Shown here: one piece after another, positions 15,342 through 57,699 of the stretch
Numbering within the stretch: the stretch's first letter is position 1
Layout of the letters: every line of letters begins with the position of its first letter
Source of the DNA: Oikopleura dioica
Lineage: Eukaryota > Animalia > Chordata
Reading direction: 5' to 3'
NCBI GenBank assembly: GCA_907165135.1
Contig: OU015570.1
Location: forward strand, 2,377,929-2,441,928
DNA length: 64,000 nucleotides
The notes under the pieces: generated by a model
Databases searched by the model: none
Told to the model about the DNA's origin: nothing
Seen by the model: only the letters and a program-made list of their open reading frames with translations
Translations under genes and position numbers: made by a program

Positions 15342-15702
15342 TGTTGTAATATGCTTCCTGATTTATGATAACTATAGTAACTATAGTTAGTACATATGTA
15401 CTAAGCTAAGTTCCTGCTAAGTAAGCATACTACTTTTGGATTGACGATAATTCGGTGTTTATTTGTGATTCTGGGGCAAGGCCAGAATGAGGGAAAATGG
15501 GCATGGTCAGGCACTTTTATAGGAGCGCTCGCTCACAAGTCTCACTTCAAGTTCGACTTTATTTCTGAGCTGCAGTTCCGAGTTGAGTGATGAGCTCGCG
15601 CTTCGCAGTTGGTGCTCGCGCTCGCCCCTCAGCTTCGGATTCTGTGAGCTTGGCTCGAGACTCGACTTTCGTTTTTGTTATCATAAGTTATGGACCATAA
15701 CA
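15342..15702 (-). repeat. 3' LTR
   Basis: TGTTGTAATA...CCATAACA; by eye it differs from 63311-63671 at only 2 positions. Confidence 0.95.
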
Positions 15703-16999: not shown

Positions 17000-19478
17000 C
17001 TGTAATCGGACTCAAGTTTTTTTTTATGAATCAGTCTTTCATGAGAGTCCATGATTCTTTTGTCCATATTTTCTGATTTCCATGAGATTTTCGATGAAGA
17101 CAGACGTAAGCTAAATAATTGCAATTATGATCCGTTTACTTTCAAATGAAGAAAACGAGGTTTTTCTTTTCCAATAGGACTAGTTTTTTCAAAATGGAGG
17201 AATAAGGGGATGAATGAAAGTACTATTTAAATGAATATTTATCTTAAGGGTACGGTTATCGATTTTGAAAAGGGGTTTATTCTGATTGTTGAAAAAACTT
17301 TGTCGTTTCCTGAATTTAAGAAGCTTCCGTCAGTTTTTGGTGTAATGAGCCTCGTACGGACCAAAATTTTGGAAAAATCTGTATTAAGGCTAGTTTTTAT
17401 TAAATTTTATGATCAAAAGGGTTAGAGTCCGTTTAAGATTCCTAATTTTGCGTTTTCCGAAAATCAGGTTCGCGCGGATGAATTTCTGTGGTGAAACCCT
17501 TAGTTGATTTTACTTGCTGTTTCGGAAAAAGCATCCCTTTAGCTTTTATCAATACTGTTAAGGGTGTCTTGATCATTCAATGAAGATTGGAAATTCAATT
17601 ATTGAGCCTCTTCAGAGCACTGACCAGGTAAATTTTACTTGTTTCCTTACAAAAAGTGCTGAATTTGTATTTACAAAATCGATTTTCGACAATATTTGAG
17701 ATTGCGCTCGAAAAATTTTGTTATAAAAATTTCTTCCGTCACCTGAGCTACGGTCGAAATTCGTAAAAAAACGGGGTGGGGTTCCTTAAGTCAGAAATTT
17801 TTAATGATTGAACATTATTTTCATCAATGGGTATTCTGATTGGTTCCGAGAAACAAAGATCAAGTTAAGCAAATCAATTTTATTGAAACCCGTGATCTGC
17901 GCTAGAATTGACCTTCTCAGAGTTATTCGAGCGTAACGGTGGTGTCCTCAATACTGTTCGCTCCTAATTATTTTATTGGCCGTAAAATTTCGAACTTCTC
18001 CTTCGCCGCCTTGACCTCTTTATTTTTATGGTTTCTGCCTGAGCGCTTCAACCGAGTTTCTGAATTTCAGAATTTCTCATTTTGAAAAATCGGTCAAAAA
18101 GGCCTAGAAAATGATTTTTTTCAAATCTAGAGGTTAAAAGAAGGAAAGCAAAGAAAGAAAAAGATGGAAGACGAATTTTTGAAAATATCTAAAGTAAGTC
18201 GGGAGCAATTTTTTTTCAGCGCATTTTCGGACTAAGTACAATTTAAGGGTATGCATTTCTTTTAAATTTTCGGATTCGCCGTTTTTCCGAAAATGAAATA
18301 TTAAAGATTACAAAGGATCTTTATCCCAACTTCAGTTGCATTTAAACGAAAGTGGGCAACTCTAAAATGGTCAATAAGAAATTCATTTAATAATTTCGGG
18401 GCTCAAATTTCTTAACTCAGATCTTTCTAGAAACGCAAGAGTCCTATTTTAAAATCGACTGAACCCAAAGGGTTTTGCGCTCTGAATTCAAGTGAGCCTT
18501 TTTCTTTAAGAATATCATAAAACAATTTTCAATTGAACTAGTAATGTCAATTCGAGCCCTTATTTCAAAAATTCTTTATCTCAAATATGAACAGAGGACA
18601 AGCACAACTCAAAAGCATTGTTGCATCACAAATTCTCCGTATCACGTGACCTTCACGAATATCATTTTAGATAAGCAATTGCTTGAATATCCCTTAAAAA
18701 TGAAATGAACAGAAATTCTTCCTTTTTCACTACTTTTGATTCATTTTTTCTAAATGCGAATTTTTCTTGGCTTGATTCGGGTGGGTCAAAAGTTATTTAC
18801 CATTGTAAATTTGGCTACTTGAGAAAACTTTCATAGGTCACAAACACTGTTTGAAAGCTGCGTTTTCAAAAACTTTTTCCGGTCGTGTTCAGATTCCGGT
18901 CCCCGGAATACAAACATAGGTAAAATAGCTTTTTTTCTGGCTCAAGTCTTTCATTTGACTCGGAGTGTTAAATATTTCTTTGAGATCATTTTATTTTTCA
19001 AATTATGTAACGAAAGCCCTTTATCCTCAAATTTTCGTAATGGCTATATTTGCGTCTTATTTATCAAAGTTTAAAATTTGTGAAGTTGTCGTAAAAACTT
19101 ATTATTTGAGCTGATTTGCTCTCGCTTTGTGGTTTATTAACTTACTTTTTTCTGACGCGAAACGAAATCGGTGGGCTTATTCTTTTCCACAGACGTTCAG
19201 AGATTTTTCAAAGTGAATCTCCATGGGCCCACTTTCGTGTAGTGAGATGGCCAAACGTCATTTACGGGGTGCCTTTGGCTCCCTGGCAGTATACTGAGAC
19301 CAACTGCCCTCCAAATGGAATCCCTATTATGTTAAATACCTTTACTTAGCGAGAGACCACATGCATGATCCATGCGTATGGCGAAGTCAATATTGTCTTT
19401 GCCTATCCCTCTGCAAGGTGATAATAACATCTGTCACCGGTCTACAGTTTGCCTGCGAAACGTAAAAATAAGGTCTAT
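17000..19478 (-). pseudogene. pol: heavily decayed pol (RT/RNase H remnants), 3' part
   Basis: Minus-strand remnants IDL, HLAEG*AKTILTSPY, VFNIIGIPFG (RT-like) and ICDAT (RNase H-like); no long ORF; left boundary approximate. Confidence 0.5.
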
Positions 19479-20746: not shown

Positions 20747-22343
20747 GCTAATATAATCATGGGGATTAATAATTCAGCCTTCCCACACGCCCAACAGTTG
20801 TTCTAGAACACCCAAATTGTTGTTGTGGATAATGGTTGGGGTGTTGATGAAATTCCGTATTTTTGCGAAAAAGGGCTCACAATCTCTAGAATTGTTGTCA
20901 ACCTGAGGCCGAAATTTCAAATTTCAATCAGTCGCCACTCGTTGCTCGACACAAAAGCTGCATTTTGCGCTTTCTACGTTTATCATGAAAACTAGGTCCA
21001 AGACCGCTTCCGAACGCCTGCGTGCGAATTCTACCGTGGAAGAAGCAACTGCTGAAGGTAAGTGCGCTACTTCTTTATTTGCAGGGAGAGGGGGGAAATT
21101 TACAGGGCCAAAAAAATCTTCACTTCTTTCGCTTCTGACTGACTGACTTCAAATATCTTCTTGTCCTCTTGGTTCTTGAATTTGAATGGTTGGCAGGTCC
21201 GATTTTCATTGTCGATCTGAAAAGGGTTAGAGTTTAGAGAGAGTTTTCAAAGAAGTCTATTCTTGTGACAGTTGCGAGATCGTTTAGATTCATTTCAAAA
21301 GTTTTCTTTGCAAAACTAAAACGTGTCAGGTTTTCATTTTAGAATGGGAGTCGCAAAGACAGTATACATAGCGTTTCATTTTAATGTCGGTGCGCATGGA
21401 ATGAACGAGGAGATCATAGTTTCATTTTAACATACGTTGCCATGTGAATGAGGAAAATGGTTGCGATTCATTTTATCACTAAACTTGGGCTAGAATCATT
21501 TACGCAACGGGCTCATTTTATTCAAATTCGCTCGGGAATATAGTTGCCAAAGCGGAAATGGTTTCATTTTCTAATCATCTTGGTAACATTCGTGTTTATT
21601 GTTGGGATTCATTTCAAAACAAGTGCGGGAATATTGGCGGCCACGGTCTAGTTTCATTTTAAATTCGAAATGTGCATCAACACCAAAGAGAGTATAGTGT
21701 TTCATTTTAAGCGCAGGGGGAGAAGCTTTGGTACTTTCTCAAAATTTTAAAGTTTCATTTTGTTACGACTCGGACACCACTAAGGTGCGCTTTCAATTTA
21801 ATTGGGCAGATTTGCTTTTCAATTTCCGGCCAAAGTATGCATTAGACCATAGACATATCATACCTTTTTAGAATCCTCTTGGCATGCTCTTTTGCTTTAT
21901 CGAGCCAGAATTCAAAATATCCGGCTTTTATCGGATTTTTTGTCGGTTTTACCGTAAATTAATCGGTTTTTCTCAAATTTGAAATCAAAACTTCTGTATC
22001 CTCTACTCTGCTTTGTTTTCGAGCCGAAAAGCCCATGATGACTCATCGTTGATAAGGTTGAATCTGGCTTTTTATACCCAATAAGAGAAACAACAGCAGA
22101 TACAAAGAAGAAAAAGAGAAAAAGAAGAACTTCAAAAAGAGAATCGAAGCTGGATAGTCTGGTGGTGGAGTAATGACGTCATTTTATCGGTTTCAATAGT
22201 TTTTTGAGGGTTTTTATTGCTTTTTTTCATGGTTTTTTCTCTTTCCATTGGATCATTTTGGAACTAAAAATTATTTAAATTGTATCTAACTCCAACATAG
22301 ACAAAAAAGGAGTTTGAGGACCTTCGGCCACAAATGATCGAGA

Positions 22344-25108
22344 ATGCGAGGAAGATTTTCGATTTGGTTTTTGATCAAGATTTGCGACGGTTACCTGATG
22401 AAAACTCGCGTATCGTTACACGCGCACTTCGAGGTACTAAAAACGACCTTTTTTGGTTTAACAATTATTACAGCAATATTTTGCGGGCTCAAAGAAGATC
22501 TTCCATCTTATTTTGAAGATGTTGATTTTCATAAAATCGATCTTGAAAAGATGCGCAACTACGATCATCAACTCTACAATAAACATCCGAAACGCAACTC
22601 TGGAAATCGAGTTGAGGGTCTGACACGGAAGAAAAGCAACAGATCAATGACAAAAAATGAAGAGATACGAGATGACATGATCCGATTTTTTGAAGAAAAT
22701 TCCGTTCTTGACACAAGATGCAGAAACGAGGCGACGGTTGCTGGAGAAGTGAAGAGAAAACGGCTTCTTCAGAAGCCCTGTTGGGTTTTGCTCCAGAAAT
22801 ACGATGAAGAGAAGAAGAAAGAGGTCGCAGAAAGGCGCCAGCGGAATGAAAATGTGAAAGACCCCCCGAGTATAAGTACTTATCGTCGAATTTATGTTGA
22901 AAACTTCTCGAAATGGCTTCGACTCGCAGACAACAACGCAATATTGAACTGTTATTGCCCAGTACACCTACAAATGGAACTCTTCACATCCGCGATCAAC
23001 AGATATGCGCTTGCAGCTCCCATAACAGATGCTGATCTTGTTGAGTTCTCGATTTGTGAAAATTCTGGCCATCGACTGAAGTGCATAGAAAACTTGTGCG
23101 AGTACTGTAACGATACAGAAATCGGATATGAACATTCAAAAGCAAGACTTGAAGACCATTTTCATGGTGTACCACCAGATGCCGAAATCACTTACGCCCA
23201 ACTTGTTGAAGTCGAACGCACCGATGCCAACCAAAACGCATACAAGAGAGAACAGCTTGTGATGCAACTTGCTACTCGTGACGAGTTCATCGCTGTAGTA
23301 AGCGACTATCTTCAACGTGGTTGCCTTGCTACAGGAGCACAGAGGAAGACCATCAATCACTACGAACTTGTGAGAGAGTCAAAAGACTTCCGAAAAGTGA
23401 ATCTTGGCAACTGTACATATGACAAGGACTCGATGCTTCTTGTCACTGACTATGGTAAGTTAAGAACTCTATCAAAGGATTCTTAAGGCTAGTAAGGGCT
23501 TTATCAGAGGATTCTGAGGGCTAGTCAGGACTTTATCAGATGATTCTGAAGGGTGGTAAGGACAATATCAGATGATTCTGAAGGCTAGTCAGGACTTTAT
23601 CAGACGATTCTGAAGGCTAGTCAGGACTTTATCAGACGATTCTGAAGGCTAGTCAGGACTTTATCAGACGATTCTGAAGGGTAGTAAGGACAATATTAGA
23701 TGATTCTGAGGGCTAGTCAGTACTTTACCAGATGATTCTGAAGGGTAGTTAGGACAATATCAGATGATTCTGAGGGCTAGTCAGGACTTTATCAGATGAT
23801 TCTGAAGGGTAGTAAGGACTATATCTGTGGATTCTGAGGGCTAGTCAGGACTTGACCAGAGGATTCATCAGATAAAGTCCTTGATGGTCTCCAGAATCAT
23901 CAGATAGAGTTCTTGAGAACCTTCGGAATCATCAGATATAGTCCTTGATAGCCTTCAGAATCATCAGAAAAAGTCCTTGATGGGCTTAAGAATCGTCTGG
24001 TAATGTTCTGACATCACTCAAGAATCTCAGCCAATCATAAGGCAGTATTTAAAATTTGAACCAATCAGAAACAAGGATTCTTTCCATGAGCCAATCAGAA
24101 ACCAGTATTCTTTCCTTGAGCCAATCAGAAGCCAGTATTCATAAATTGAGCCAATCAAATCCATTGTTCTATAATTTTATTCTAGCGATGGGAGTCAGCT
24201 GCAGAGAATTATGCGAAACTTCCAATATGCATTTCAAGAGAGACAGTTACCCCTTGCTCTCGATCATAAGCTACGGAGTTGACCAGAACAACAATGCGAA
24301 GAAGATATACAACCATCTTCTAAGCGAGATCCGAGTTGTCAAAGATGTCGAGTTCAGCCTAGCCGGGATCAAATTCGCGCTTGAGAATGCTGTTGCTGCT
24401 GTTGGCCCGAAGAAAAATTTGTGGATTCAGTCAGACGGGGCTGGTATGTGAGTTTAGCATTTTCCGTCAATAACAGAATCTAGAATCTCAATTCTGGTCC
24501 AAAGAAATGTTCTCTACCCTCCCAAGATACTTCAACTTGCTCCAAGCCTATCAATTCCAATCGATTATTTGGTATAAAACAGTCTCTGGGCATGGGAAAG
24601 GTATGTCTCAAAGAAAAATCACACTTAAAATTTGTAAGGAGAGATCGACTCCTCCCACGGATGCGTAAAACAGGACATTGTCCGACAGTACAATCACCTT
24701 GGGGGCTCCGGATTCGGTGGCGAGCGTTTGGAAAATATTGGAGTGGTCGATTCTGCTTCTCAACTCGTAAATTTCCTCAATCAACAACGAAAGGATCATT
24801 TTGGAACTCTTGAGAAGAAAAAAGAAGACAGTAATGGCTACACTCTGGCTGGCCGATACATTTCCGAGTTCATTAATGATCCCAATTTCGTAAAAGAAGG
24901 AGAAAAAATCGCTGGATCTCGAGCATATCATCTTGTTCAACTGGTCAAAGATGAAAATAATCAATGGGATGAAAGAAAACTTTTGTTCAAAAAAAGACCG
25001 ACAGATTCAGTGTGTCCCCGAATTCTACAGAAGAAAGAAGAAAAACATCCATGCCCAACATGTGGTCTTCAACCGTCACTTCATTGGATCCACCATGATC
25101 TTCAATAG
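22344..25108 (+). CDS. transposase (about 650 aa, 3 introns)
   Basis: Introns 23455-24185, 24444-24483 and 24601-24638 splice in frame to give VTDYAMG, QSDGAESQFWSK and GHGKGEIDSSHGCVK; Cys-rich region CYCPVH / CIENLCEYC upstream. Confidence 0.8.
23478..24020. repeat. 32-bp minisatellite with an inverted block (foldback) in transposase intron 1
   Basis: About 12 forward units GATTCTGAAGGCTAGTCAGGACTTTATCAGAT (23478-23860), then about 4-5 diverged inverted units. Confidence 0.85.
24026..24160 (+). promoter_or_regulatory. five CCAAT boxes at about 30-bp spacing
   Basis: RRCCAATCA at about 24030, 24061, 24091, 24121 and 24151; matches the NF-Y consensus. Confidence 0.5.
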
Positions 25109-27332
25109 TTATTTATCTTCAAATCTTTTTTATTTATTATTGAAATTTTTGCCTTTCATATCTTCGCAAAGTGAAGATTTTCTCGTTCGAAATCTACTGC
25201 CAATTAATTCTTTTATCAGAATATTCACCACTGAAAACTGCCAAATAAAAACGGAAACGAAGAAATTTTATATTATTTTTCCCTTATTTAGATGTAAATT
25301 TGAGCCCCAATAGTTTCGGGGATTCCCGTCATGGTTTTCCATAATGGTCAACCGGTGCGCAAGCGTGTTCCTACTGGAAAACGTTTATCACACCGCCCCG
25401 CGAAGGTAAGATTGATTTAAGTTTCAAAATGATCCAATCTGATCTAAAAACCGATAATTTTCAAATTTTACCGAGAAAAAAACCGATTATATAACGACGA
25501 CAACGATAAGAATAATTCAAATCATTTAAATTTTGAATTGGCAAAGGAAAAGAGCCAAAACCGGAATTATTTTCTATTGAAACCGATAAAAATCCGATAA
25601 AAAGTCCGAAATCTGAAAATCCGGCTCGATAAAACAAAAGAGCTGGTCAAGAGGATTCCAAAAAGGTATGATACTCCCCGGGTTTAATGTAAAGTTTTTC
25701 CGGGAATCGAAAAGAAAATCTGCCCAATTAAATTGAAAGCCCACCTAAGTTCTATAAGTCTTGATTCATTTCAGAGTTGACAAAAGAGTACCTTGACTAT
25801 CTACAAGATTCATTTTGGAACCGCAGTTTAATTAAATGGTGAAAGAATACTTGAATCATTTTATATCGTCTACTAAAGGACTCATTTTGGGCGTATCACA
25901 CGTGATATGTCCAGTTAGTAGGAAATTATATGTTTTCAAATTTGCCATCATTTATTTTGTGGCGGTGGCGGCGGACTAAATAAAAGCGTTGAAAATCTTG
26001 GAGCATTTTATAGTCGTTGTTGTCTTCAGGGCTCGATTCGCTTTTCAGAGAGCTTGACAAGATATCTCTCGATTCATTTTACAATACGATTTCGACTGCC
26101 TAAAATTAGAAAAAGTTAGAGTTAGAGCTAAAATAATTTTAATCAGTCATTTCGGTACAGTAGAGTATGTTTATACTGATTGCATTTTATAAAGGGAACA
26201 TTGCAGGAAAATTTTTGCTAGCATTTTATTATAGGTTATATTGGTCGCTTTGCGGAGGATTTTTTTGTCAGCATTTTATTGCCACGAGAAGTAGAGTAAA
26301 GATATTTGACACATTTAATGGATCGGGTTGAAAACGGATAGTACGTTCTTCAAAGGGTTTCATTTTAAACAAATGCCTATCGTAAGGATATCAAGACTCT
26401 GGGGTCATTTTATGTGTCTAATGCGTAGAGATTGTACCAAAATTGGCTTCATTTTAAGAGGGCGACTGAAAAAGAGCCTTATGAACAAAACGCTTCATTT
26501 TATGAAATGGGGGCTTCGAAGAGGCTTATTGAGGGAAGCGTTTCATTTTACGAATATGGGCGCGTGGAAAAGGCCTCATGAATAAAAAGCTTCATTTTAA
26601 TATTAGAAAAATTTCCTTAAAAATGAACTTAACGCTGAACGAAACGTTTCATTTTATATTATCAAGAATCATTTTATTCGTTGTCGGGGATTTGCACTCA
26701 AGTTTCCTTGCGTTTCATTTTATAGTCTACAGAACTTAAAGTATACTGGTCTGTTAGATTTAGCTTCATTTTAAACCCTTTTTCTTTAATAAATGACATA
26801 CTATTGGAATCATTTTAAATGCGCCAGTAGATTTCAGTGCAATAATTTTTGCAGGTTCATTTTAAAAACGTCGATTGAATCTCATTTTCGTGTAGAACAT
26901 TTAGAATCATTTTAAAAACGGGCAGTATGGAACGATTAACAAACAATGTTTAGTATCATTTTACTGTTTTGATTTTTGATCAAATTAAAGTCCATTTTGA
27001 AACATTTTGACGCGTATTGTTGAGAATCATTTCAGTTCAACTAATGAAATTACTAAAAATTTGGAATCATTTAAGCAAAGTTGCAAAACCTAAGTCCCAT
27101 AGCTGATACAGAATTTCATTTTATAAACATAGATCTTTCACTCTTTCTCACTTTCTAAAATCTCTCGGCGTCTCTCTTTTTGCAGATCTCTCATTCTAGT
27201 CTCTTTCTTTTGCTTTCGGATCTCTTTTCCTTCAAGTCATTTTGATGAAAAGTTGTCAAAGTGGCCCACATTTATGCTCCCCAATATTGCGCCCTCAGCG
27301 AAGAACCCTCCATTGATTTTTCTTTTTAGCCG

Positions 27333-29851
27333 TTGCCGACTCCCCACTACGACCAGCTGCTGGATCCGAGCAATCGCAAGGTAATCCCTATTCATTGTCG
27401 ATTTTCCGGAAACAAGTCTTTAGACCTTGAAATCGCGGCCCAGCATGTTGCTTCCGCGGCTGCCGATACAAGCGACGCGCTCTCATCGGTTATCGAGGCT
27501 GGGCAATCAATTCTGCTCGACGAATCGATGGACAGCTTCCACAATCCACCACCTCGACGAAGCTCCTCTCTTCGCGATCCTGCTCCCTTCAACGCCTCTT
27601 CTGGCAACACCACTGGACCCAACAGCTCGTCCTCCTCCGCCGAAAAGACCGTCACCCTCCCACATGTGCGAAACCAATGGGTTAACGAAGGCTCCACTCT
27701 CGTCGAAGAACCCGTTGCTCGCCCAAACGACAACACTACCAGCGCCGTCCCCACCAGCGACTGCTCCTGCGAAGAAAAGTCGCCCAAGCTTCCCCAGAAG
27801 CGCAACTGGGAAATGGATGGATCGACTGATCCTGAGAATCGCCCCCGAAAGCGATTCCAAGACGGCCGCGCTCCTCCCACCAGCTCCAGCGACGACAGTG
27901 TCAACGACACCGATTATCTGCTCGTAATGGGCGCTCCAGGTGCTGCTGAAAAAGCCCAAGAAAAGGCCAAGAGACGTGCTACTGCTGCTGCTCACGCTCG
28001 AGCTTTGAAGATTGTCGAATCTTCCTACCGAGCGTTGGCTCCTTCCGACGGCGACTCCTCTCAACCCGACAGCGACGATTTCGATGGCGTGCTCAACAAG
28101 AGCGAGCCCCGTCGAGTTGTTGTCAACACGAGCGAGGAGAACGACACACCCAACAACTCTCCTGACAGCGACGGCAGCGAGGAGCCCATGCGCACCACCA
28201 ACTTTGACCCCTTTGCAAACAGGGGCGAAAGAGGGCTGGACTTGCGATGGCTCAACAAGCACGATCGCGTTGTCGTCCGCCAGCCTCACCGAAGACCTTC
28301 CGAAGACGCTTCCGGCTCGGACAACGTGTCAATGGAGGTCCACACGTCCGAGTGGAGCGACTCTTCTGCTGCTGGAGCCTTCCTTGGACATCCCACCTCC
28401 TCCTCCTCCTCCTCCTCGCCCCCGTCTGACAGCAACAGCACGCCCAACGCCAGCACCGTTGCCAACGTTGGCACCGTTCTCGCCGATGTCATCGAGGAAA
28501 TGGCCGAATCGATCATGGACATTTCGGATCTGTCAACCTTGACAGATCCCGAGACTCCCACCAACGCTCAGCCCCCACTCGGAAATGGGCTCTCACCCGC
28601 GATGATGGCTGGCGCTCTTACCGGCCTTTGCGACAACGGATTTATCCGTAATATGTCGCCAAAAAAATCGGCTCCGCTCGCTTCTCGATCAAAGGGCCCG
28701 CTTAGCCCTGTTGAAGTGGTCTTGGTTCGCCAGATGGATTCCTCGTCGTCTGGCTACAGCTCTGGCTCAAAGAGCGGCGAAGAAGAGCGAGAGCTGATGG
28801 ACGTGGACCCGATTCTCGCGATCAAGGAGCGAGCTCTTCTTGGCGGCGAAAGCTCAAGCTCCTCCGACGAGCCCACCACCAGCAGTTACAACACCAGCTC
28901 CTCCTTCCCAACTGGCTCTTCTTTTGAGCCCAGCTCAATCAGCGGCAACTCCAACGGCAACTCTTCCTCCAACGGCAACTCCTCTTCCAGCGGCAACTCC
29001 TCCTCCAACGGCAACTCCTCCTCTTCCAACGGCAACACCTCCACCAGCGGCAACTCCTCCTCAAACGGCAACTCCTCCTCAAACGGCAACTACTCTCCCA
29101 ACGGCACCGGCAACACCTTCAAAGGTTCCATCGTCACCGTCTTTGACGAAGTCGATGTTGGCGCCGACCTTGGCGAAACAACCATCGTCGCGCCAGCCAC
29201 GCCTGCTAACCGATCTGTCGTCACCGTACCTGGCGGCAGCGTCGCTGCTCCCGACGAGAGCGTTTTTGTTGGCGGCGCCGACGTAAGCGGCATTTCTGGC
29301 GTCGAGCCCCTCAACGCCACCGGCACCGGCCCTTCTCCCAACGCCACCGTCCTCAACGGCAGCGGCAACGGCACCAACGGCAACTCCACCAACGGCAACT
29401 CCACCAACGGCAACGGCACCTACACCGAGCTCCGATCCGGCGAGAACGGTCAGATTGGCGAGCAGGGCAACATTGTCCTTCGGGCGTACCGACGGGATGG
29501 AACTTTGGGCCGGCCAACCGACTTCAACACCCCGCGAATCTTTCGCATTGAAAGCTTTGTCGAGCCGCCACACAAAGGTACTTTCCATCAAGATAATTTA
29601 AATCGAGAACTTTTAATCAAATCATTTTAATCAAAACTTTCTTAATCAAAATTTAGCTCCGGCCGACGCGACCCCCTTCCAAAAGCAGCTGGTCTCCCTC
29701 AAGAACAACCTCGCCGAGATCTACCTCAACCACGACAACTTCCGCGAGGAATTGGCGAATGGAGAAGTTGGGGCGTTGATCCTCGTCAAAGACGAAAATG
29801 GGCGTGTGACCGCGTTCAAGAATAACATTGTCTTGCAGCGACGAAATTAAC
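27333..29851 (+). CDS. large S/N/G-rich intrinsically disordered orphan protein (>800 aa)
   Basis: 765-codon open exon plus an in-frame second exon after an intron starting at about 29578 (HK|APADATPFQKQL...QRRN*); NGNSSS repeats; start codon uncertain. Confidence 0.75.
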
Positions 29852-29964
29852 GGTTTAAACTCCACGGGAGTCTGTTTTCAAAAATAAATTCAATTAATCT
29901 TTCATATAAAATGCAACTGATTCTTGATATTGATTGCATTTACGAGTGTCTGAGTCGAGCAGAG

Positions 29965-30375
29965 CAGGGCTAGAAAGCGGAGCGAAAAATTAGAGTAGAA
30001 ATCGGAGCGAAAATTAAGAGTAGAAATCGGAGCGAAAAATTAGAGTAGAAATCGGAGCGAAAATTAAGAGTAGAAATCGGAGCAAAAATTAAGAGTAGAA
30101 AGCGGAGCGAAAAATAGAGCTAGAAAAGTAGAGCTTGAAAAATAGAGCTAGAAACTTGCGAGTAGAAAATGGAGCGAAACTTAGGAATTAAAAACTCACG
30201 AGTAGAAAATGGAGCGAAAAAAATTAGAGCCAGAAAAGCCGAGAGCCAATTTTAAAAAATCTCGAAATTCCAGAGAGCCGCCTCGAAATTCCATAGAGTC
30301 GCATCGAAAATCCAGAGAGCCGCCTCGGAAATCCAGAGAGCCGCCTCGAAATTCCATAGAGTCGCGTCGAAAATT
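29965..30375. repeat. two adjacent minisatellites (25-26 bp AGTAGAAATCGGAGCGAAAA unit; about 21-bp CCAGAGAGCCGCCTCGAAAT unit)
   Basis: Visible tandem units between Polinton accessory genes. Confidence 0.8.
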
Positions 30376-30961
30376 CATATTTTTGGAAAAAGAGCCAGTT
30401 TCAAAAGTGCAAGCTTGCAAAAAGCACAATTCCAAGAGTCACCATGCATTTTTTGAAATTCAAATCTAGGTTGAGTTTTCCCTTTTCGCAAGATTTCGTC
30501 AGATTTGTACTTTCGAGAATTGCTCTGGGTTCGTTTCTTGATGGCGCCCGAATACAAAATTACGAAAAAGGCCACATTCCGATGCTTATCAAAGTCCGGA
30601 TGTTCCCAAGGTCAAATTCTGCTGAGAGAAAACTGCTGATCGAGAGAAAGACTGTGCCGACTGTTATCAATTTTGTGGCGCCTTTGACTCTTTGCCCCCT
30701 CTTTCTTTGATAATTGCCGCGTCACTAACATGTTCACTTTCAGCGTGAACATTTCGAATTTGGAAAATTGGTGGTTGCGGCTCCGTCGCAACATCAAGAG
30801 AGCCTTCGTCTACCCGTATCCGTCCATGTCACTTGGATCGTAAGTACCAGAAAATTTTGAGACTAGAAATTGTGACTAGTAATTAGCAAAATTAAAATTA
30901 ACTATTAACTAAATAAAACTAAAATTGCAAATTTAGCCACACATCCACTTCATCCCTGTCC

Positions 30962-31341
30962 ATGCCAGACGAAGAGCGCGACTTGGACATGTCGAATTCG
31001 TCGATGGCTAACCAGCTCGCGGATACGCTTCAGGCGAATGCGGAGCAATTCCAGCGACAGCTTCCTGCCCGACACCCTGACCCACGCCGACTCTTCATCT
31101 CCCTACTCGATCATCAAGAGATCACGGTCGAGAAGTTTATCATCGTGGCCCACCTCAGCGGATTTCGAGTAAGTTTATTTTGAAACAAAAGAAAATTGGC
31201 ATTTTATTTTAGCGAGTCAACAACCTCATGTTGTTTTCCTGGTTTTTCGTCGGCTGCATCTTCACGGTGGCGGTGATGATATTGGTTCTTATGCTGTTTC
31301 CGGCTCGACGCCGCTGCTTAAGCGGACGCTTCGCGCGCAGC
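30962..31341 (+). CDS. small single-pass membrane protein
   Basis: MPDEERDL...SGFR spliced (GTAAGT...TTTTAG) to RVNNLMLFSWFFVGCIFTVAVMILVLMLFPARRR: a hydrophobic helix followed by a basic stop-transfer. Confidence 0.6.
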
Positions 31342-31425
31342 GTGATTGGTTAGTTTATTTGGCGCAATTGCGCTTAAAAATCATTTAGCGCCACCCGCTG
31401 GCAACTTGTCAATTTCTGTCCCCCG

Positions 31426-31798
31426 ATGGATTTTGGCCTCGACGACTTTGGCTTTGTCAACGACCTCGTCAACGGCCTCGTCAACGGCACCGCCACCAAC
31501 CTCACCGCCATGAACCTCACCGCAAACTCCAGCGTCGCCAACTTTGCCACCTCCAACGACACCCTTTTCATCTACGACGATGAAGATTTCGGCTCCGGCG
31601 ACTTTGGCTCCGGCGACTTCGGCTCCGGAATGGACGTCGTCTTCGAGTCCTTTGGCTTCGACGAATCCGACGGCGACTACAAGGGCGAGCTCTTTTTCGA
31701 CATGGTTGTCGGTAAGTTTAAACTTGATTGAAACTAAAATTGAAACTAAAATTGAAATTTTAGGATCGCTCGAAGCCGCTTTTCGAGCCTTTTGGTAA
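31426..31798 (+). CDS. acidic DFG/SG-repeat protein with N-glycosylation sequons
   Basis: DEDFGSGDFGSGDFGSG; NGT/NLT/NLT/NSS/NDT sequons; one intron from about 31713 gives the C-terminus VGSLEAAFRAFW*. Confidence 0.55.
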
Positions 31799-32091
31799 AA
31801 CGATCGCCTGAAACCCCTCCAAATTGTTCTTCCACGAATTGGCTTCTCCCTGTACATTGTCCCTGGTTAAAAACACCTCGTCTTCATCTATCATTCCATC
31901 ACTCAAGCTTTTCCTGACCTCGACTTCTTGATCCCTTTCTTATCATTTAGCCTTTCTTCTCGTTTAGCTTTATCATCTTTAGCGTTTCTTCTCGTTTAGC
32001 TTTAGCCTGTATCATCATCTCTCTGTTTTAACCCTGTTCCAAATTTCTATCCCTTTAATTAGAGCTCTTGTGAAAAATTAAAAATTTCAGG

Positions 32092-33293
32092 ATGTCGAAA
32101 TCGGCCCAGAAAATGAATGCCAAGCCAGATCTCTCGACAGTGACCGAAGAGTCGACAATTGTCGGCTCTGATGATCCAGAGAAATTCTACGCCCGCATCG
32201 ATCCGCCATCCAAGCCGCCACCGCCGCGCCCGCTCAAGACTCCAGCGGAATTCGCGCCGCCGCCGCCGCCGCCGCCGTCGTTCAAGAAGCCTCCGCCACC
32301 GCTCCAAAAGCCGCCCGATGCGCAGAAAAAGCCCGACGCCGAGACACGAGAGCCCGTACGGGAGCCCAAGCACAAAGTGTTCATTCGGGATCCTGTGCAC
32401 ATTTGTCGGAGCTCGGAATCTAAGCCTCTCATCGAAGCTCCGTCTCTGAGCGTCATCGGCCACTGCGGCGATCGACAGGTAGTGCCCCCTTTTAAGTGAG
32501 CAAAATCAAAGCTCAACTTCTAACGGAGCATTAAGGATCCGCGAGAGCTCAACGACTCTAGCGATGATGATGAGCAGCCAAATCGGTACCAGCATCAGTT
32601 CCGGAACTCGAGCCGCGCAAGACGACGAGGGCGATTTGGATCTTGCGGACGACCAGCTGCTGCTCTCAAACAGGTAAATTTTTTCAATTTTGCAAAAAAC
32701 TTACTTTTGACAAGGACAACGACGACTTGGACGCCCTTGCCGACCAATTTGTTCGATTTGGCGTGGCACGATCATCTCCTAAACGTCCACAACCTCCACC
32801 TCGCCCGTCTGTTGACCGGCAACGACTGCTCGCCGAAAACGCCAAGGTTCTCACCGAAGCGGAAAGCGCTCGAGAAGCAATGGCGAGCGCTCAAATCAAA
32901 CCTCCACCCCCGCCGCCGAGTGCCTACTTTGGCACCCCGGTAAGTTTAGACACGGGTGCTTTTGCTGACTTTTACTTTTAGGATGACGAGATCGATGCTT
33001 TCTTTGTCCGCGACAATCCCGAGCGCGCGTTTGTCAGCGGACTTGCCAAGACAAACCATCACCGGCTCCTGAATTTCAAGCCGTCGCTGAAGATTGCATG
33101 CGCCGACGATCCCACCGCGATCAGCAAGAACAAGTTCCAACTCCAGGTGGTCACCACGCATCGAATCAAGATCCTCGGAGGGCAAGGGCTGCTCGACATG
33201 ACGCAGAAGTCGACAACAACTACGCCAATCAACTGGGACGGAAGTTTGCAGCACACCAGCAGCGTCCAGCGAATCAACAACTACTACAACTAG
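32092..33293 (+). CDS. Pro-rich orphan protein (4 exons)
   Basis: Poly-Pro tracts; three GT-AG introns join in frame (DRQ|DPRE, LKQ|DNDD, GTP|DDEI). Confidence 0.65.
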
Positions 33294-33432
33294 TTCCCCT
33301 GCACCTGCTCTTCCACTGCTTTTGCTAGTTTAGTCGACTGTGCGCAAAAAAGCTCGCCAACTTGGCTCGCCAACTTGGCTCGCCAACCTGGCTTGAGCTA
33401 AAATTTTAGCTAAAATTACAATTTTAGAAAAA

Positions 33433-34212
33433 ATGGGTCGCAAAAAAGCGACCGAATACGTTTGCGAGGCCGTTGCTCGAATCGACCGCGATGCCCGGAA
33501 GATCAAGACCGTCGTAAAGACAACTACGAGCCGCGTCTTGCGTCGTAAGTTCAAGTTTCGAGGGGCCCCTTATTTACTTTAAGCCTTTCGATCCGAGGGA
33601 ATCGTTTCCTCAGCAGCCCGGCTATCGCTCCGAGATCGTCCGTCGACTAGCGCACCATCGGGCTCAAGTGAAGGCTCGACAAGCTCATCTCCGCCTCGAA
33701 CGCGACGCGCTTCAACTGGCGCAATTTCTCGCAAGAAAAGTGCCCTTGACGTCGTTTCGGATGTCGTTGACACTGCGTCCAGTAAGTCTAAATTTGTAAA
33801 AACCTGTTAACATGAATTTTTAGAATTTCTGTCAAATCAGAATTTGGTAACAGTTGGCGCCCGGATCAAAGATGTCGAACTTCACGCCAGCTATGCGACT
33901 CGTCCGACTTTTCCTGCACCTCTTCCGCCTTATTTCAGCCCCTACCAGTACCCGTACCCGTCTTCGCGTCCCACTTCGGCGCCTCCTTCTCCGCCTGACT
34001 CTCGTGCTCGTTCTCTGCAGAGTTCTCCCATTTACCCACCCGCTTACCACACCCTTTCTCATACGAGTTCTTTTTCGAGTTCCCGTACGGGTTCCCTTAC
34101 GGGTTCCCATATGGGTTCTCCTTCGATTTCTCATGCGGGTTCCCGTGCGGGTTTTCCCGACTACTGTCCAATCTATCCCCCACTCCCGCCGTTTGATCAA
34201 TTTCATCGATAG
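33433..34212 (+). CDS. basic / Ser-Pro-Tyr-rich orphan protein (3 exons)
   Basis: MGRKKATEY... follows a TTTTAG acceptor; two GTAAGT introns; C-terminal YPYPSS and GSxxGS repeats. Confidence 0.55.
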
Positions 34213-34256
34213 TCAATCCCCCCGCCCCACCTTACCGTAAAATTTATTCTAGAGCG

Positions 34257-36058
34257 ATGGAGAGTCCGCTAGATGTCTCGCCTGTTAGAGTTCGGCGCTC
34301 TAAAAGAAACTGCCGTAAAAAGGAGCAGCCCCGCACCAAATCCGGAAAACTGTCTGCAGCGATGTCGGAGCCAATCCGAAAAACCGGCAAATACAACCGA
34401 AGAGGCAAATTTAACCAAATCTGGCATCAATAACGATTTTTTAGTGCTCTACTCGGCCGATCAGCCCATCTACGGATCTCGTGGCCGCCAAAACGGTAAT
34501 TTATCGCCAAAAAGCTTTATCTCATCAAAAATTTAGTAGACCCGCCAATCGAAAGGCCAACTCGACGACGAAGTCAGGGCCACCCCCGAATTCCTCTCTA
34601 CCAGCAGCGGCTGCGACGAAACGACTCGCCAGCACGCCGTGAGCAGCCTCGGCGCCAGCAGCCCCAGCGCCAGCAGCCTCTGCGCCAACAACCTCTGCGC
34701 CAACAACCCCAGCGTCAGCAACGCGAGCAGCCACAGCGACAGCAGCCCCAGCGCCAGCAGCCACAGCGCCAACAGCCCGAACGCCAGCAACGCCAACAGC
34801 CCCAACGCCAGCAGCCACAGCGCCAGCAACGCGAGCAACGCCAGCCTTCTCCAGCTCGACAAGCGTCTCCAGAGCCAGCTCGACAACCGTCTCGACAACC
34901 GTCTCGACAACCGTCTCGACAACCGTCTCCGCAGCCCGCTTCCCCGCTCCCTCGACAACCGTCTCCGAATACAGCGCCGACTACAGCTCCAGCGCCGACT
35001 CGAGCGCTCACTGGTGCCGAGCGGTATCCAAACGTGGCTCGCTGGCTCGACTCGCAAGAGGATCCCGAGCCCGACTTGGTCCCAATCAATTCCGTCAAGC
35101 GATGGAGCATCGCTTCTAACCTCAACTCGATTGTCGATGACAATCTGAGCGCAGAGGGCCTCACCGGATGTCTCAAGGGCACAAAGCTGGCCAAGTTGCT
35201 CAAGGGGCTCCCAATCACCGACAAGCCGGTCCACGTCTTCAACTGGCTTCAGCTCGGCGCCTTCTTCCCCAAATTCAAAGTCGTCGACGGATACTTGACG
35301 ATTTCGTCGCTGCGAATCTGGGCAAGTCTTTTCGCTCTTGCAAAATTTTAAAGTGGCAATTTAGATTGATTTGCCGAGCGAAGGCTGGTCATTGCTCAAC
35401 GTTGAAGACGCCATCAACTCGCAAACCGCCCCCAAAATCTACAAGCACGTGACGACTGCTCCGTTGGTGGCTCATCCCTGGCCCGACTGGCAAATCGACG
35501 ATCTCGCCAACGTCAAGGCGGCCTATTTGCTCGTCGCCGGCTTCATTCCCTGCGCCACCATTCCCGAATACGACCCGGGAGCCATTCGATGGAATCAAAT
35601 GGTAAGATTTTCAATTTGCGACAAGAAATTAACAAATTTCAGGAGTGCCGAATGTCTGGCACTATCAAGCCGATCCAAAAGAAGCTCCTCCGCTACAATT
35701 TGGAGCTCAAGCTCTATCAGAGCGCCATCAGCGAAAACGAAGAGCAAATCCGCTCTTCGAAAGAAAACAACGACCCTTCCGGTGAGCGAGAGCGCTTCAA
35801 AACGCTCTTTAAAGTTCTCCGCGGCCGCGACGCTCGCTCCGTCAACGAAGTGCGCCGAATCGACGAGCCCATCTTGTGGGCCATTGGCAGCACCGCCCGC
35901 TCTTTTGAACACCTCGTCGGCTGGCTCCCAAAGCGCGCAATGGCGCAAAATCTTCTCGCCGCAAATGCTGCTTCTCGACCCACCGAGTCCGACGCCTTTT
36001 GCACTTTGGTAAGTCGATCAAAAGAGCCAAATTCTAATCAAAGTTGTAGTTCAACTAG
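34257..36058 (+). CDS. Q/R/P-repeat orphan protein with a globular C-terminal region (about 530 aa, 5 introns, two GC-AG)
   Basis: Introns 34405-34444 (GC-AG), 34496-34536, 35322-35364 (GCAAGT donor), about 35602-35642 and about 36010-36049 all keep one frame; QRQQP and SRQP repeats. Confidence 0.7.
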
Positions 36059-36440
36059 CTGCCGCCGTCGCCACTTTCGTCGCCGCCGCTGCTGCACTCG
36101 CCGCCGATAAAAGTGCCATCCCCACTACTAACCCAACCCGACGTACTAACATGCACCCATCACTCAAAACATTTTCCTGCCCGTTTTTCAATTGATACTT
36201 TTGTGCTTTTAAATTTTCGCTTTATTTGACTGTTTAAGATTTAGTTTCTGCTTCAAACTTTCCTTCAAATTTAGTTTTGCTTCGATTCCGTTTCCTTCAA
36301 ATTTAGTTTTGCTCCTAGATTCCGCTTGTTTCAAATTCGTAAAACTAGCTTTAAATTGTTCAAACTTGTGCCACTCTTTCTCAAACACTCAATCTAGACC
36401 ACTCAATTGTACTTGCGCTCTAATCAAAAATTTTAGAATT

Positions 36441-38553
36441 ATGCTCGTTTGGTTGATCTTGGCGGCGAGCTTGAGCTCACAAGAGATGACAAGCGAAGAG
36501 CACCGACGATACTGCAGCCGCTTCGTTAATCACCAAGACCTGATTTGCCGGAAACACGCCCCAAAGCCCTCGTCAACTATTCCGCCAACGCTCGAGCCGC
36601 CGACGACCGAGCCTTCAACGCCCGAGCCGTCTCCACCACCACCACCAACGCTGGAGCCGTCTCCACCGCCAACTCCAGAGCCAAAGTCGTCCAAGGCCTC
36701 TTCTCCGTCCAAGCCGACTCCTCCAACTCCCGAGCCAACGTCAACGGTCAAGACAACATCCATGTCAACTTTGCCGGTCGAGACAACTTTTGCCGAGATC
36801 CCAACGAGCAGCAATCAAACGGACTCGCCAAGCCCTACGTCGCCGAGCTCTACGTCAACGAGCCCTGCGTCACCGAGCCCTACGTCGGGACGTACGTCAT
36901 CTGTCGAAAAAGGAAAAATTAATTTTCTCACGTGAGTACGCTAGGTGCTTTTTCTCACCAGGTACCCTGAGCGCGCGGGGTACCCTGGCGCGCATATGGC
37001 GCATTTAATTTTATTTTTTCATTTATTTTATTTTCCTTTTTGCACCCCGTGTGCGCCAGGGTACCCCATGCGCTCAAGGTACCTGGCGTCGCTAACCACC
37101 CCGTAGGCTCTTGTTAATTATCGGCCTCGCTTTCTCCTTTTTGGTGGTATTGATCGTTCTTGGAATGCATTGCCGGCTGGTGCGCTCACGGTACGAAACA
37201 ATTCCCATGGAAGAAGTCGATGCCGAAGGTGAGGACCCCTATGAGCTCAGAAGAGACTTTGAATATTTTGCAGCTCTTGATGCAGAGAGGACAAACAGAG
37301 CCACCAACCGTCGAGCGGAAGAAGAGGAAATTGCTGCAACACGTGCTGCTGCAGAAAATGCCGCTGCTGCTGCCGCTGCTTCAAACCAGCCAGGAACCTC
37401 CGCGGCGACCTCGTCAGAAAATCAGCCAACCACGTCAACGACCTCGCCAGGAATCTCCTCGGCGACCTCGTCAACGACCTTGTCAGGAAATCCGCCGACA
37501 AATTCTCCACAGCTGTCCGAAGAGTCCTTTTCAATCGAGACCGAAATTTCAAATTTCGAGAGCTCGCGAACGCCGCCCGAAAATCGAAGCTCTGCGCTCC
37601 AAGCGGTAAGTTTTTACGAAAATTACAATTATTGATTTTTAACTCTTATTTCAGAAAACGCCGCAACAAACAATGGAGCAATATCTCGCCAGCCTTCCGC
37701 CCGATGTTGTCGAGCACATTGACAAGTACGAGTCCCTCAAAGCCCGATTTGATGTCCAGTCGCCGATTACAAAGAAGCTGGCAAAGATTACGGTGCCGCT
37801 GAAAAAGCTGATGGATGCGCCGGCAAAATTTGGGATTTTGCGACGACAGCTCTTTGTGGAAACGCCGTTTTCAACGCCAGTCGCTTCGCCTGCTCCCTCG
37901 GCGACTCCGTCGGCGACTTCATCGCCAGAATTTGTCTCGGCACTTCAGTCGCCGATCGCATCGCCCGCTCGTCCAAATTTGTCGCTGCTCTCCGAGGAAG
38001 GAAACGACTACTGGAAGAACGAGTATTGGAGCAACTCGCCAGTCGCCAAGGTTTCACCGTTTAGCGTTGTCGAGCCAAAGCAGGAGCCGACGACGGAGCC
38101 AAAGCTGGAGACAAAGCTGGAGCCAAAGCTGGAGCCAGAGACGGAGCCAGAGACGGAGCCAACGACGGAGCCAAAGACGGAGCCAACGACGGAGCCAAAG
38201 ACGGAGCCAACGACGGTGCCAAAGACGGAGCCAGCGCACACTTACGCCGCCACCGAATACGAATACGACTGGCGATTCGGCTGGCAATATGATGATGGGC
38301 AATTTGTGCCGAAAAAGAAGAACCCAAAGTCGAAGGCGGCGTCTTTTACCGCGAAATGGAAAAGCTTTTGGATGAATTCGACGGGCCCAACGATCAAGAA
38401 TTCACCTTTATCGATGGGCTGGTTGCCTTTGGAAACTATATTTCGTAAGTTTTAGGCCTTTTGATTTTTACTCATTTTTGTCTAGAAAGCGAACTCAAGC
38501 TGCCACCACCGCCAACTCCTCCACCGCCTGATTGCTTCCAATTGTGCCTCTAA
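36441..38553 (+). CDS. type I membrane mucin-like glycoprotein (about 615 aa, 3 introns)
   Basis: Signal-like MLVWLILAASLSS; P/T/S-rich ectodomain; TM LLLIIGLAFSFLVVLIVLGMHC; long tail with TEPK repeats. Introns 36932-37106 and 37606-37654 are in frame. Confidence 0.75.
36958..37086. repeat. about 38-bp imperfect inverted repeat inside an intron
   Basis: CCAGGTACCCTGAGCGCGCGGGGTACCCTGGCGCGCAT versus the reverse complement of GTGTGCGCCAGGGTACCCCATGCGCTCAAGGTACCTGG, separated by an AT-rich loop. Confidence 0.85.
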
Positions 38554-38596
38554 AACTTTAAATTTTTTCAAATTTTCAAGGTGCCATTTTTAGTTT

Positions 38597-46100: not shown

Positions 46101-48258
46101 TTGATTTCCTTCCAACAAAATCATACAGTACCGACGTGAGCAGCGGCATCAATATTCGCAAGTCGTAGCTTTCTCCATTCCAGGCGTAGCACTTGAGTTT
46201 GAAAAATTCTTTGAGGTAGTTGAGCTTTTTGCGAATGACGCCTTGCTCCTCGGGCGTAAATTGATCCTTGGCATCTTTGCTCAGCTGGTAAGAGTACATG
46301 TCGATCCCTTGCTGAAGACATGGAGGTAATTTTTCGGCCGCGCGCTGTCTCAGCTTGGACAAATACTTGACGAACTTGGCCGCCATAATTATGCCACTTT
46401 CGTAGTTGAGATCTTTTCTCAAAAACCATTCCTTTTCTCCGTCGCTAGTCATGCAAGCAATTGAGACTACATTGTGGAATTTGTGATTAGAGAGAAGCGG
46501 CTCCTTTTGGGGTTTTTGCCCTTTTGACTTTTTGGGCGTCGCAAATGCGGCGGCAGTGCTTGCATTGATCCATTGATTGAAACACAATTGTTGTCGACTT
46601 GCATTTCCTCGCCGCCGCCATTGTCCTCGCCGTCGTCATCGTCGCCATTGCCCTCGCTCTTGCCGTAGTCGTTGGTGTTTTCGTAGCCATAGATTGACGC
46701 AATTCGGCCAAGCGAGTCGCTCGACATGACCGATTCTATGTCGTAGGTTATGTAAAAGTTTGGACAAATTGCTCGTGTGGCAAATAACCATCTTTGACAA
46801 TTTCTTTTATAAAGTCGGTCACGTGGCGGCCGCGCACCGTTTGCGTGATAATTCGCCTCTGCTCTAGAGTGCACTTTTTGATGTGATCTTTCATTCGAGC
46901 GGGGCGATCGTTTGTATACGGACAGTTTTGGGTGGGGCAGCGCGGCATATCTTTCACTTCGGAACTTTGAAGCACTCGCACGCGGGTATTTTCGTCAAAT
47001 ACATTGGGCACAAGTCCACCCAAATTTCGTATCGGCTCGTCGTCGTCGTTTTCAATATCGGTGGCATCGCTGTCGTACTCGGGAAAAAGGTCAACGTCGT
47101 CGTCACCGTCAGAGTCGCACCGCTCGTCGACGTCGGTAAGGTCGCCATAGTCGGCACAGTTGTAGTCGTCTTCGTCTTGCATGGCAGCGGCACCAGCGGC
47201 GGCACCGCCAGTTCCAGCAGTGGCGATATAAGTCCCAGCAAAACCAGCCAATTCTCTCAAACTGTCAGGATACTTTTCGAGTCGACTTTTTCGCCAGTTG
47301 GGGTGAGCAGCAAGGCCAGGGTTTCTCCAGGGCTCGGCTTTAAGGCGCTTGTAGCTCACGTTGGCAAATTTTTCAAATTGGTCCAAAAAGTGTCACTTGT
47401 GTGCCCAGCGACGAGCAGATGCAGCTGCTTGTGACTTTTGAGCGGCATGGCGCCATAATAACAACGACGATCGCGCACATTATCGTTGACAACATTGCCA
47501 GTATAAAGCATAATGTTGACTCCAAAGCGAGATCTTATCCGGCCAAGAACACCATCGGAAATTGAAAACCGCTCATTTTCCGCCAACGTCAGCTCCTTTT
47601 TCACGTGCTCGATTTTCAAGTCCTGCTCTTCCCGGCTCAACTTTGGCCATTTACAGTTGACAATGGCTCTCCAAACAGAAATCCAATTTTTGTCAAAATC
47701 TTCTGCCACGCGGCGAGTTGGAATAAAATGAAACGTGCCCAAGCGATGGAAAAATGGCCTACTACTCTGCAAAACAACAAGCGGCCGATCGCGGTCAAGT
47801 TTTTCTAGCTCGCCAAGCACGTTTCGAATGCAACTAGGTCCAGACGTTCTGTAGGGCCTATATGAAATTCCCAGGGGCGCATAACGTCCCCCATACAAAA
47901 TGTAGAGATCAATTCCGAGTCGCTCTTCAATACGAGGAAAATCGCTGCGTTTTGGAGTGCCAAACTCGGCAACCAAATCATCAACATTGACATCCACAAT
48001 TTTATCCCACAAGGCGCGCGAAATTGTTTTTGGCTGCTTACCTCCAGACAGACGGTGCCAATTTATTCCCAGCTTGACTGCGTGGTAAAAGTTGGTCTTG
48101 CAGCCTCCATCATCATCATCGGAATCAGAGGAATCATCGGATGTTCTTGAACGAAATCTCTCGCCTTGACGATTCGAATACAAAAAGCGATTACGGCGCT
48201 TGCGAGCACCTTCAGATTCATGCTTTTCACGATTTATTAAAAATCTTGAAACTTTCAT
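43117..48258 (-). CDS. polB: protein-primed family B DNA polymerase (about 1,700 aa if repaired; 5 homopolymer frameshifts, 1 intron)
   Basis: ExoI ITYDIES; ExoII WNGESYDL; ExoIII YNLNDV; motif A YDFNALYG; motif B KLFLNSFVGKF; motif C YCDTDS; LSPKCY; EYNGCHFHPC insert; intron 43331-43369 gives the C-terminus KRLIMPDKVTTRP. Confidence 0.95.
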
Positions 48259-57419: not shown

Positions 57420-57699
57420 AGTCTCGCAGCCAGCGTGCCAGTTTGGCGCAGGTAGGAAAACCTAAATCAAGGTCTTAGTGGTCCCTCGAGTTCGATTCTC
57501 GCCAGTGACCAAGCTCTTTCGGGGGCGAAACGAGAATCAAAGCTTATTCCGGCGGCTATTACGGCGGCCGTACAGAGCACCAGGAAATAGCTGACACCTC
57601 AGCTCAAGCTACCCGCAAGGAGGAGGAGGAAACCGGAGTTGGAGGCGCGGTAGACAATCAAAAACCACCAAACTTTTTTTCATTTTTTATTGCACTAGA

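Follow-up and report, generated by a model that had tools for sequence, protein, structure and literature searches.

Among the closest described counterparts of the locus reported here are cis-acting units in which a short motif sets the start of transcription at a fixed distance. According to excerpts of PMC6211774, the poxvirus upstream control element (UCE) carries TGA at positions 6-8 of 15 with a purine start 12 nt away, and the ATNTGA element of yeast linear plasmids lies 11 nt from its start. In the tunicate Oikopleura dioica, an upstream motif places the start at a constant distance, and trans-splicing uses an unpaired AG followed by A (excerpts of PMC6389100). Gene control in Polintons is almost unstudied. 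Here, we describe an array of short motifs and mostly unrelated spacers in a Polinton of O. dioica; the window analyzed is a 64,000-nt stretch (contig OU015570.1 of assembly GCA_907165135.1, positions 2,377,929 to 2,441,928, forward strand), and the positions given below are those of the window. The array is real, on the evidence of motif excess and period; it also shows a fixed pyrimidine-purine (YR) step, a common orientation, spacer turnover, and one host-like spacer, and we tentatively interpret it as a battery of mini-promoters.

Results

A phased array of motifs with a positioned YR step

The array was analyzed over 1905 nt, from which a nested transposon had been removed, with 1000 dinucleotide shuffles as the null. 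TCATTT occurs 37 times against 3.2 ± 1.7 expected, the exact motif TTCATTTT 20 times (0.65 in shuffles), and G.[AT]TCATTT 29 times (0.46 in shuffles). The initial annotation had counted about 40 motifs; the array and its strong excess over shuffles stand, but with only 20 exact copies the larger figure needs a relaxed core, all of whose approximately 40 copies share one direction. Gaps between CATTT sites measure 42-53 nt in 25 of 44 cases compared with 5 under random placement (maximum of 14 in 20000), so the motif is more periodic than chance, a check that the same annotation had named. With a mean in-phase gap of 46.8 nt (n = 32, standard deviation 4.0) its period of about 46 nt is upheld, except in a decayed section with degenerate motifs (25883-26360, plus strand) that is out of phase. 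The left half of the array (21286-21783, plus strand) holds 11 in-phase units, and the right half (25746-27125, plus strand) about 30.

The unit is bipartite, consisting of G-W-W-T-C-A-T-T-T-T-A and a YR step exactly 17 nt away. Of the 37 motifs listed, 31 have G at -4 and 32 have A at +6. In 19 of 28 strict motifs, against an expectation of 6.4, the YR step occupies -17/-16 (p = 2.4e-4 after Bonferroni correction and 5e-5 by permutation). The left half has it in 6 of 11 units and the right half in 18 of 30; control TCATTT sites elsewhere have it at that offset in 16 of 94 cases. It had been stated that only the core is conserved, but the G at -4 and the YR at -17 are kept as well, and the positioned step had been missed. 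The four YR dinucleotides are about equally used among the 37 motifs (CA 6, CG 6, TG 6, and TA 5), which indicates that a class of step was kept and not an ancestral sequence and so points to selection. The step keeps a constant distance to the right-hand motif but lies anywhere from 17 to 34 nt (median 23) from the left-hand one. Read on the minus strand, the unit becomes TAAAATGAA(A/T)C, an A/T-rich linker (GC content of 0.29 versus 0.39 for the rest), and a YR step with its purine 17 nt past the G of TGA, the base following TGAA being A or T about equally. A contig from run X5 has 34 more bases at 26662, converting a 20-nt gap to 54 nt, and these restore, by eye, the YR at the expected place for unit 26670; in one spacer of a second array copy the YR appears by eye to be shifted by one base.

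The same statistics and YR enrichment also fit a protein-docking array, acting as an enhancer, tether, or packaging signal, in which the YR would be a bend point and no initiation would occur. The weak information shared over approximately 24 bp (anchored identity at -24 to -7 of 0.301, slightly above the null of 0.282, z = 5.3) is consistent with docking, as are the position between divergent gene blocks and the unstructured spacers. However, the motif spacing shows no helical phasing, not being a multiple of the helical turn, and no candidate binder was found in Pfam scans of 35 and 22 proteins. The array also lies 1.8-3.7 kb from the end of the element (nested transposon discounted), which is far for an adenovirus-type packaging signal. 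Protein binding, one of the functions initially proposed, is compatible with the array in spite of the missing helical phasing, but the even use of A and T after TGAA is unlike the interferon regulatory factor (IRF)-type site that had been suggested. We regard docking as possible but doubtful.

Flanking genes and splice signals

Every unit, read on the minus strand, points to an unpaired acceptor at 21218-21224. This belongs to a pyrimidine tract and acceptor (TTTTCAG then A; 21218-21262, minus strand) that is faced by all motifs and is likely a trans-splice site. Beyond it lie a putative 29-codon open reading frame (ORF; 21120-21209, minus strand) with 11 Lys/Arg, no Asp/Glu, and no Pfam match, and then AATAAA at 21079-21074. 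On the plus strand (20885-21057), a TCTAGA testis-type promoter at 20885 is followed by an initiator-like TCAGT 45 nt downstream (A20930), as in the testis promoters of this species (excerpts of PMC6389100), by an ATG at 20985, and by a donor GT at 21058. This exon has two possible splices: one to 21106 through a 48-nt intron, which gives a short ORF, and one that joins it in phase to 27330 on the far side of the array. The right end of the array is bordered by pyrimidine tracts and acceptors (27186 and 27329) at 27128-27329 (plus strand). The first gene of the rightward block follows at 27330-29630 (plus strand), with a 51-nt exon, a 43-nt intron, and a long low-complexity ORF for which no homologue was found at 421-1341 amino acids. 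The array thus lies between divergent, outward-facing gene blocks, each of its ends adjoining an outward-facing pyrimidine tract and acceptor, and, to judge from this arrangement, it may be both a plus-strand intron and a minus-strand outron. TCTAGA occurs at both 20802 and 20885, 83 nt apart between divergent genes, likely as a back-to-back pair of testis-type promoters.

The long outron leading to about 21218 that the initial annotation had suggested agrees with this geometry. Its repeated AAAATG, however, starts minus-strand open frames of only 3-44 codons, and minus-strand acceptors are not purged from the array. A reading of the motifs as minus-strand poly(A) signals was rejected, AATGAA being found in just 23 of 41.

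The array period equals the intron mode of the species, 47 bp in excerpts of PMC5240408; a median intron of 49 bp is given in those of PMC8008620. This agreement, a weak depletion of plus-strand YYYYAG, and the TCTAGA promoter with in-phase exons on both sides would suit an RNA element located in a long first intron of the plus strand, where, in testis, a branch-like YUCAY plus a U run would aid or delay splicing or act as a sponge for a U-rich RNA-binding protein. We consider such an element very unlikely: AG after the motif is not avoided, all 20 local short intron ends lack the motif, and the YR step is left unexplained. With the 48-nt intron to 21106 as an option, moreover, a long intron across the array is not needed. 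The earlier proposal of AG-less 3' splice-site mimics, drawn from the match between period and intron length, is unsupported on similar grounds, with AG not avoided after the motif (4 of 34, p = 0.2) and none of 20 rule-picked short introns in the element ending in it, even though the period is that of the intron mode.

Spacers and array copies

Pairwise alignment covered 32 of the 38 spacers (25-48 nt, 496 pairs) and gave a mean z of 0.07; z exceeded 3 in 9 pairs and 4 in 3 pairs. Two of the latter fall within the triplet 26450/26496/26544, three related units that mark a local duplication (26450-26592, plus strand), so the spacers, which had been called unique, are mostly unrelated but include local duplicates. 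Against the whole window, 35 of 36 spacers were at shuffle level. No per-spacer hairpins were detected (folding z of -0.13 for 36 spacers and -0.19 for 105 controls), nothing in Rfam came near a gathering score (best E of 0.55 and 2.9), and the spacers as a set carry no plus-strand coding signal (z of 1.0 and 1.7).

A functionless, decayed 46-bp minisatellite could account for the one local triplet and the weak anchored identity. It is nevertheless extremely improbable and already largely refuted, because the units cannot be aligned over their length, the autocorrelation is nearly flat once the motif is masked, and four different YR dinucleotides occur at one position. That the spacers do not align as a decayed 46-bp repeat, with only 3 of 496 pairs above a z of 4, supports the initial judgment that this is not a simple minisatellite, for which this alignment had been the named check. 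Public loci that show the motif pattern (120 and 39 viral, 63 metagenomic) are A/T-rich chance matches or homogeneous repeats, none of them homologous to the array by blastn, and public minisatellites with the array's motif differ from it in having neighboring units that are 65-97% identical.

The nested DNA transposon (21784-25745, plus strand) has approximately 200-bp inverted repeats beginning GG, a TAA target duplication, and no Pfam match. Removing it together with one TAA leaves a 46-nt gap, and it is absent from the array copy in run X5, which represents another population. The match of the run X5 contig begins exactly at the empty site, with 461 non-transposon letters before it; the array is therefore older than the insertion. 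Both parts of the original claim, that the 46-nt phase is restored without the transposon and that the array predates it, are thereby confirmed. Within the transposon (23466-24157), a minisatellite of 32-nt units reverses its orientation at 23865, which gives it long hairpin potential, and is followed by 30-nt CCAAT-containing repeats; the region resembles an intron of the transposase gene.

A second copy of the array, which has diverged, is present in run X5 on a contig of 2080 nt. Pieces approximately 87-91% identical alternate here with non-aligning stretches, and unit-sized losses have occurred (44 and 104 nt skipped). Breakpoints lie at motif edges in 10 of the 16 listed (p = 0.014), but local alignments usually extend across conserved motifs, so this excess shows that motifs are kept beside changed spacers and not that they are a cutting site. 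The listed differences between the copies are spread along the array and show no polarity. Comparison of copies had been another check named at the outset, and it finds the array in run X5, including the second diverged copy, with spacer gain and loss.

A host-like spacer

One spacer (26318-26354, plus strand) matches a separate host locus at 30 of 34 positions in run X3, 31 of 34 in run X5, and 33 of 37 in organism B, in a comparison that covered 25995-26470. The match spans the spacer edge to edge, the 33/37 version covering 26318-26354, and one run X3 contig matched solely 26321-26354, with unrelated flanks. Approximately 27 right-half spacers could be compared in run X3, and among the matches listed this is the one with a host match. 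The chance expectation for the discovery in X3 is 0.02-0.1; that for X5 is 0.001-0.003 and that for X7 6e-5 to 2e-3, and these three values are not independent. A random 34-mer would fall inside one spacer in 4% of cases and reach both spacer ends in 1%. A phage control produced one chance match (44 bits, E = 0.4). The host match is very probably real.

In the frame of the spacer, the X3 and X7 flanks show by eye five identical residues upstream, with two third-position differences, and downstream an Asn specified by different codons. With these synonymous differences the host locus looks protein-coding on the strand of the motif, a reading of the flanking sequence that we consider likely. The upstream flank in X5 diverges after 11 letters, and the spacer itself carries an in-frame TAG. 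A His and an Asn 16 residues apart may recall papain-family proteases. A degenerate pattern for the host target gave 0 matches in viral and metagenome contigs, and PDB and Pfam searches returned nothing, a 12-residue match being too short to reach significance in large protein sets. In the second array copy this spacer is not alignable.

A weaker case is the 18-nt stretch 26013-26030 (plus strand), which is identical to the reverse-complemented sequence of an ORF within the element itself (53338-53355; four null models give p = 0.005-0.03). It is antisense to its ORF, an orientation opposite to that of the host match, and such opposite gene-relative orientations would fit capture at the DNA level. 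Depth in run X3 is 11.3 over the array and 25.5 over the separate host locus, a ratio that appears compatible with one hemizygous array copy. Small indel differences separate run X3 from the window.

A host-derived spacer is also what a small-RNA minigene array might contain. In such an array the units would yield short capped RNAs whose first 21-26 nt serve as guides, and the antisense guides made from captured host pieces would silence or decoy host mRNAs. The match of spacer 26318-26354 to the host locus in three runs (chance levels of 0.001-0.003 for the best allele of the same species and 1-4% for a fit within a single spacer) is in keeping with this idea. As the host locus is likely coding on the motif strand, minus-strand RNA from the YR would be antisense to it over approximately 26 nt, and the predicted length from start to next motif is 21-26 nt in 15 of 21 cases. 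Against it, just 1 of about 27 spacers in X3 matches the host, and that spacer has no alignable counterpart in the second copy; the self match has the opposite orientation, the host match extends 10 nt upstream of the predicted start, the spacer set lacks a plus-strand coding signal, and there is no YRNT-type T. On balance a guide array is unlikely, and equally improbable is its more elaborate form, a Polinton with its own programmable small-RNA array that captures spacers from host genes and turns antisense guides on the host without Cas proteins. The guide or decoy RNAs envisaged in the initial annotation can thus point to one matching spacer, but to only 1 of about 27, and to no per-unit structure.

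The host element

The element that carries the array is a Polinton/Maverick of 39.2 kb (19479-58700, no strand assigned), with terminal inverted repeats (TIRs) starting AGTAGT and a 6-bp target duplication, GTCTAT, at 19473-19478 and 58701-58706, ends that agree with those of Polinton/Maverick elements. Pfam scans matched pPolB (PF03175), an rve integrase, and a Pox_A32/IVa2-like ATPase, all weakly in the window's pieces. An O. dioica pPolB from a Y-specific region of the Okinawa assembly shares 97% identity with the polymerase, with 28% of the query covered, and passes the Pfam cut-off; the two differ, which makes the Okinawa protein the product of a sibling copy. With this relative and the Pfam matches, the polymerase, integrase, and ATPase of a Polinton/Maverick are all represented. 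Capsid proteins and a protease had no Pfam match among the scanned ORFs, no fold search having been run, and viral contigs contained no relatives of the polymerase or the ATPase.

Several other features of the element and its surroundings were recorded. The polymerase (43366-46635) is spread over three overlapping minus-strand frames, which reflect either real frameshifts or assembly indels. Each TIR holds an inward-facing AAAATGAAAAAA (19538 and 58641) that is nearer to the poxvirus early core than the array motif is; neither site has a YR step at 17 nt. A 14-kb plus-strand gene block rich in short peptide repeats (27330-41433), without a meaningful Pfam match, is an unusually large accessory cargo for a Polinton. 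A 46-nt inverted repeat pair with a 37-nt gap (36958-37086) resembles a miniature inverted-repeat transposable element, and degenerate 17-24-nt repeats occur at 57689-57834, close to the right end. Outside the Polinton, a 300-nt direct repeat of 99% identity flanks it on both sides (15342-15641 and 63311-63610); it contains a 40-nt near-palindrome and is possibly similar to a long terminal repeat.

Discussion

The interpretation that we prefer, and that we hold as plausible but short of probable, is that the array is a series of tandem mini-promoters directed at a trans-splice acceptor and that templated repair now and then captures sequence into its spacers. Each unit would combine an upstream element with an initiator, the purine of the YR being the predicted start, and starts from any unit would feed one trans-spliced message for the leftward genes, the first product of which would be a small basic peptide. 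The approximately 23 nt past each start would be discarded as outron, which would leave the spacers free to change. Between the two copies, units have been duplicated, lost, and replaced at motif edges. Short foreign pieces appear to be written in occasionally, as one spacer demonstrates, likely through microhomology-mediated repair: O. dioica lacks non-homologous end joining (NHEJ) and relies on microhomology-mediated end joining, which makes templated insertions (excerpts of PMC12426944 and PMC11067885).

A number of observations weigh against this interpretation. Insertions made by Pol-theta are mostly shorter than 25 bp and copied from nearby DNA (excerpts of PMC12426944), and a 34-37-nt piece from a distant locus is unlike them. 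Being symmetric between the strands and also an easily bent step in DNA, the YR is not proof of initiation. Pfam scans of 35 and 22 proteins recovered neither an RNA polymerase nor a known DNA-binding domain, and the motif is not placed before the element's other genes. Minus-strand acceptor-like TTT[ACT]AG is not depleted in the array (7 versus 1.8 expected), the sole depletion being that of plus-strand YYYYAG (6 versus 12, p = 0.02 uncorrected of 12 tests). Finally, in the decayed section of the second copy, 4 of 15 listed substitutions fall at motif positions, and the motif at 26075 is destroyed.

The resemblance of the array motif to viral early promoter cores has limits of the same kind. 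Poxvirus UCE, the African swine fever virus (ASFV) early promoter motif (EPM), and the upstream conserved sequence (UCS) of yeast linear elements share with it an A run and then TGA, with a purine start at a narrow fixed distance downstream (excerpts of PMC6211774 and PMC7163114), and the poxvirus-type order of A run, any base, and TGA is present in the array. A UCE is A/T-rich over 15 nt with the purine 11-12 nt from its end, whereas here the C that follows TGAA(A/T) is conserved at position 11, and the purine lies 8-9 nt from the UCE-like 3' end, which also speaks against promoter function of this type. The array further differs from viral early promoters in its approximately 40-fold tandem layout, in belonging to a nuclear, intron-bearing element in which no RNA polymerase was found, in a distance 2-3 nt below their medians, in the C conserved inside the motif, and in that initiation is putative. 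A helper virus might conceivably supply a viral RNA polymerase or helicase.

If the mini-promoter interpretation is correct, the element would raise its expression through a 40-fold promoter battery that relies on host trans-splicing, a strategy new for virus-like elements, and the predicted start sites are defined to the base. Were the host-derived spacer expressed as a guide, this would be an instance of host genes being sampled into a repeat-spacer array by a virus-like element of an animal. A neutral array would still preserve, in an animal that lacks NHEJ, a natural record of templated capture from a distance. The array is a real and unusual element. Tandem cis-acting arrays are already known, and the listings of our literature searches showed no Polinton layout that combines a positioned YR with a host-derived spacer.

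A likeness to clustered regularly interspaced short palindromic repeat (CRISPR) arrays lies in the motif-spacer rhythm, the spacer-sized gains and losses, and the one outside match (1 of about 27). Identity with a CRISPR array was rejected: the repeat is 8-11 nt and degenerate instead of more than 20 nt and near-identical, spacers duplicate locally and drift, the Pfam scans contain no cas genes, and there is no polarized growth, copy differences being spread along the array.

In worms, the distance from the 21U motif to the start is about 40. The 21U PIWI-interacting RNA (piRNA) minigenes of Caenorhabditis elegans share with the array an upstream GTTTC-like motif, a YR start at fixed distance, and a short unique sequence (excerpts of PMC6436959). 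The array differs from them in lying in a tunicate, in a motif-to-start distance of 17 nt, and in its head-to-tail units within a virus-like element. Identity with the nematode 21U-piRNA (Ruby) motif was rejected, the host being O. dioica and the second base of the motif A or T equally, and so was a 21U-type YRNT start, the YR being present but T not enriched on either strand; the analogy is one of layout only. The TCTAGA testis promoters of O. dioica share a start-fixing motif with the array, and their spacing of 45-48 nt equals its period (excerpts of PMC6389100). They differ in having another motif, a single copy per gene, and no occurrence within the array.

The array can also be set beside tandem cis elements that act together. 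Tandem ribosomal DNA (rDNA) spacer promoters and the homologous region (hr) enhancers of baculoviruses are repeated cis units with drifting sequence between them that boost neighboring transcription. Compared with these, the units of the O. dioica array are far more diverged and non-palindromic, and one of its spacers is host-derived.

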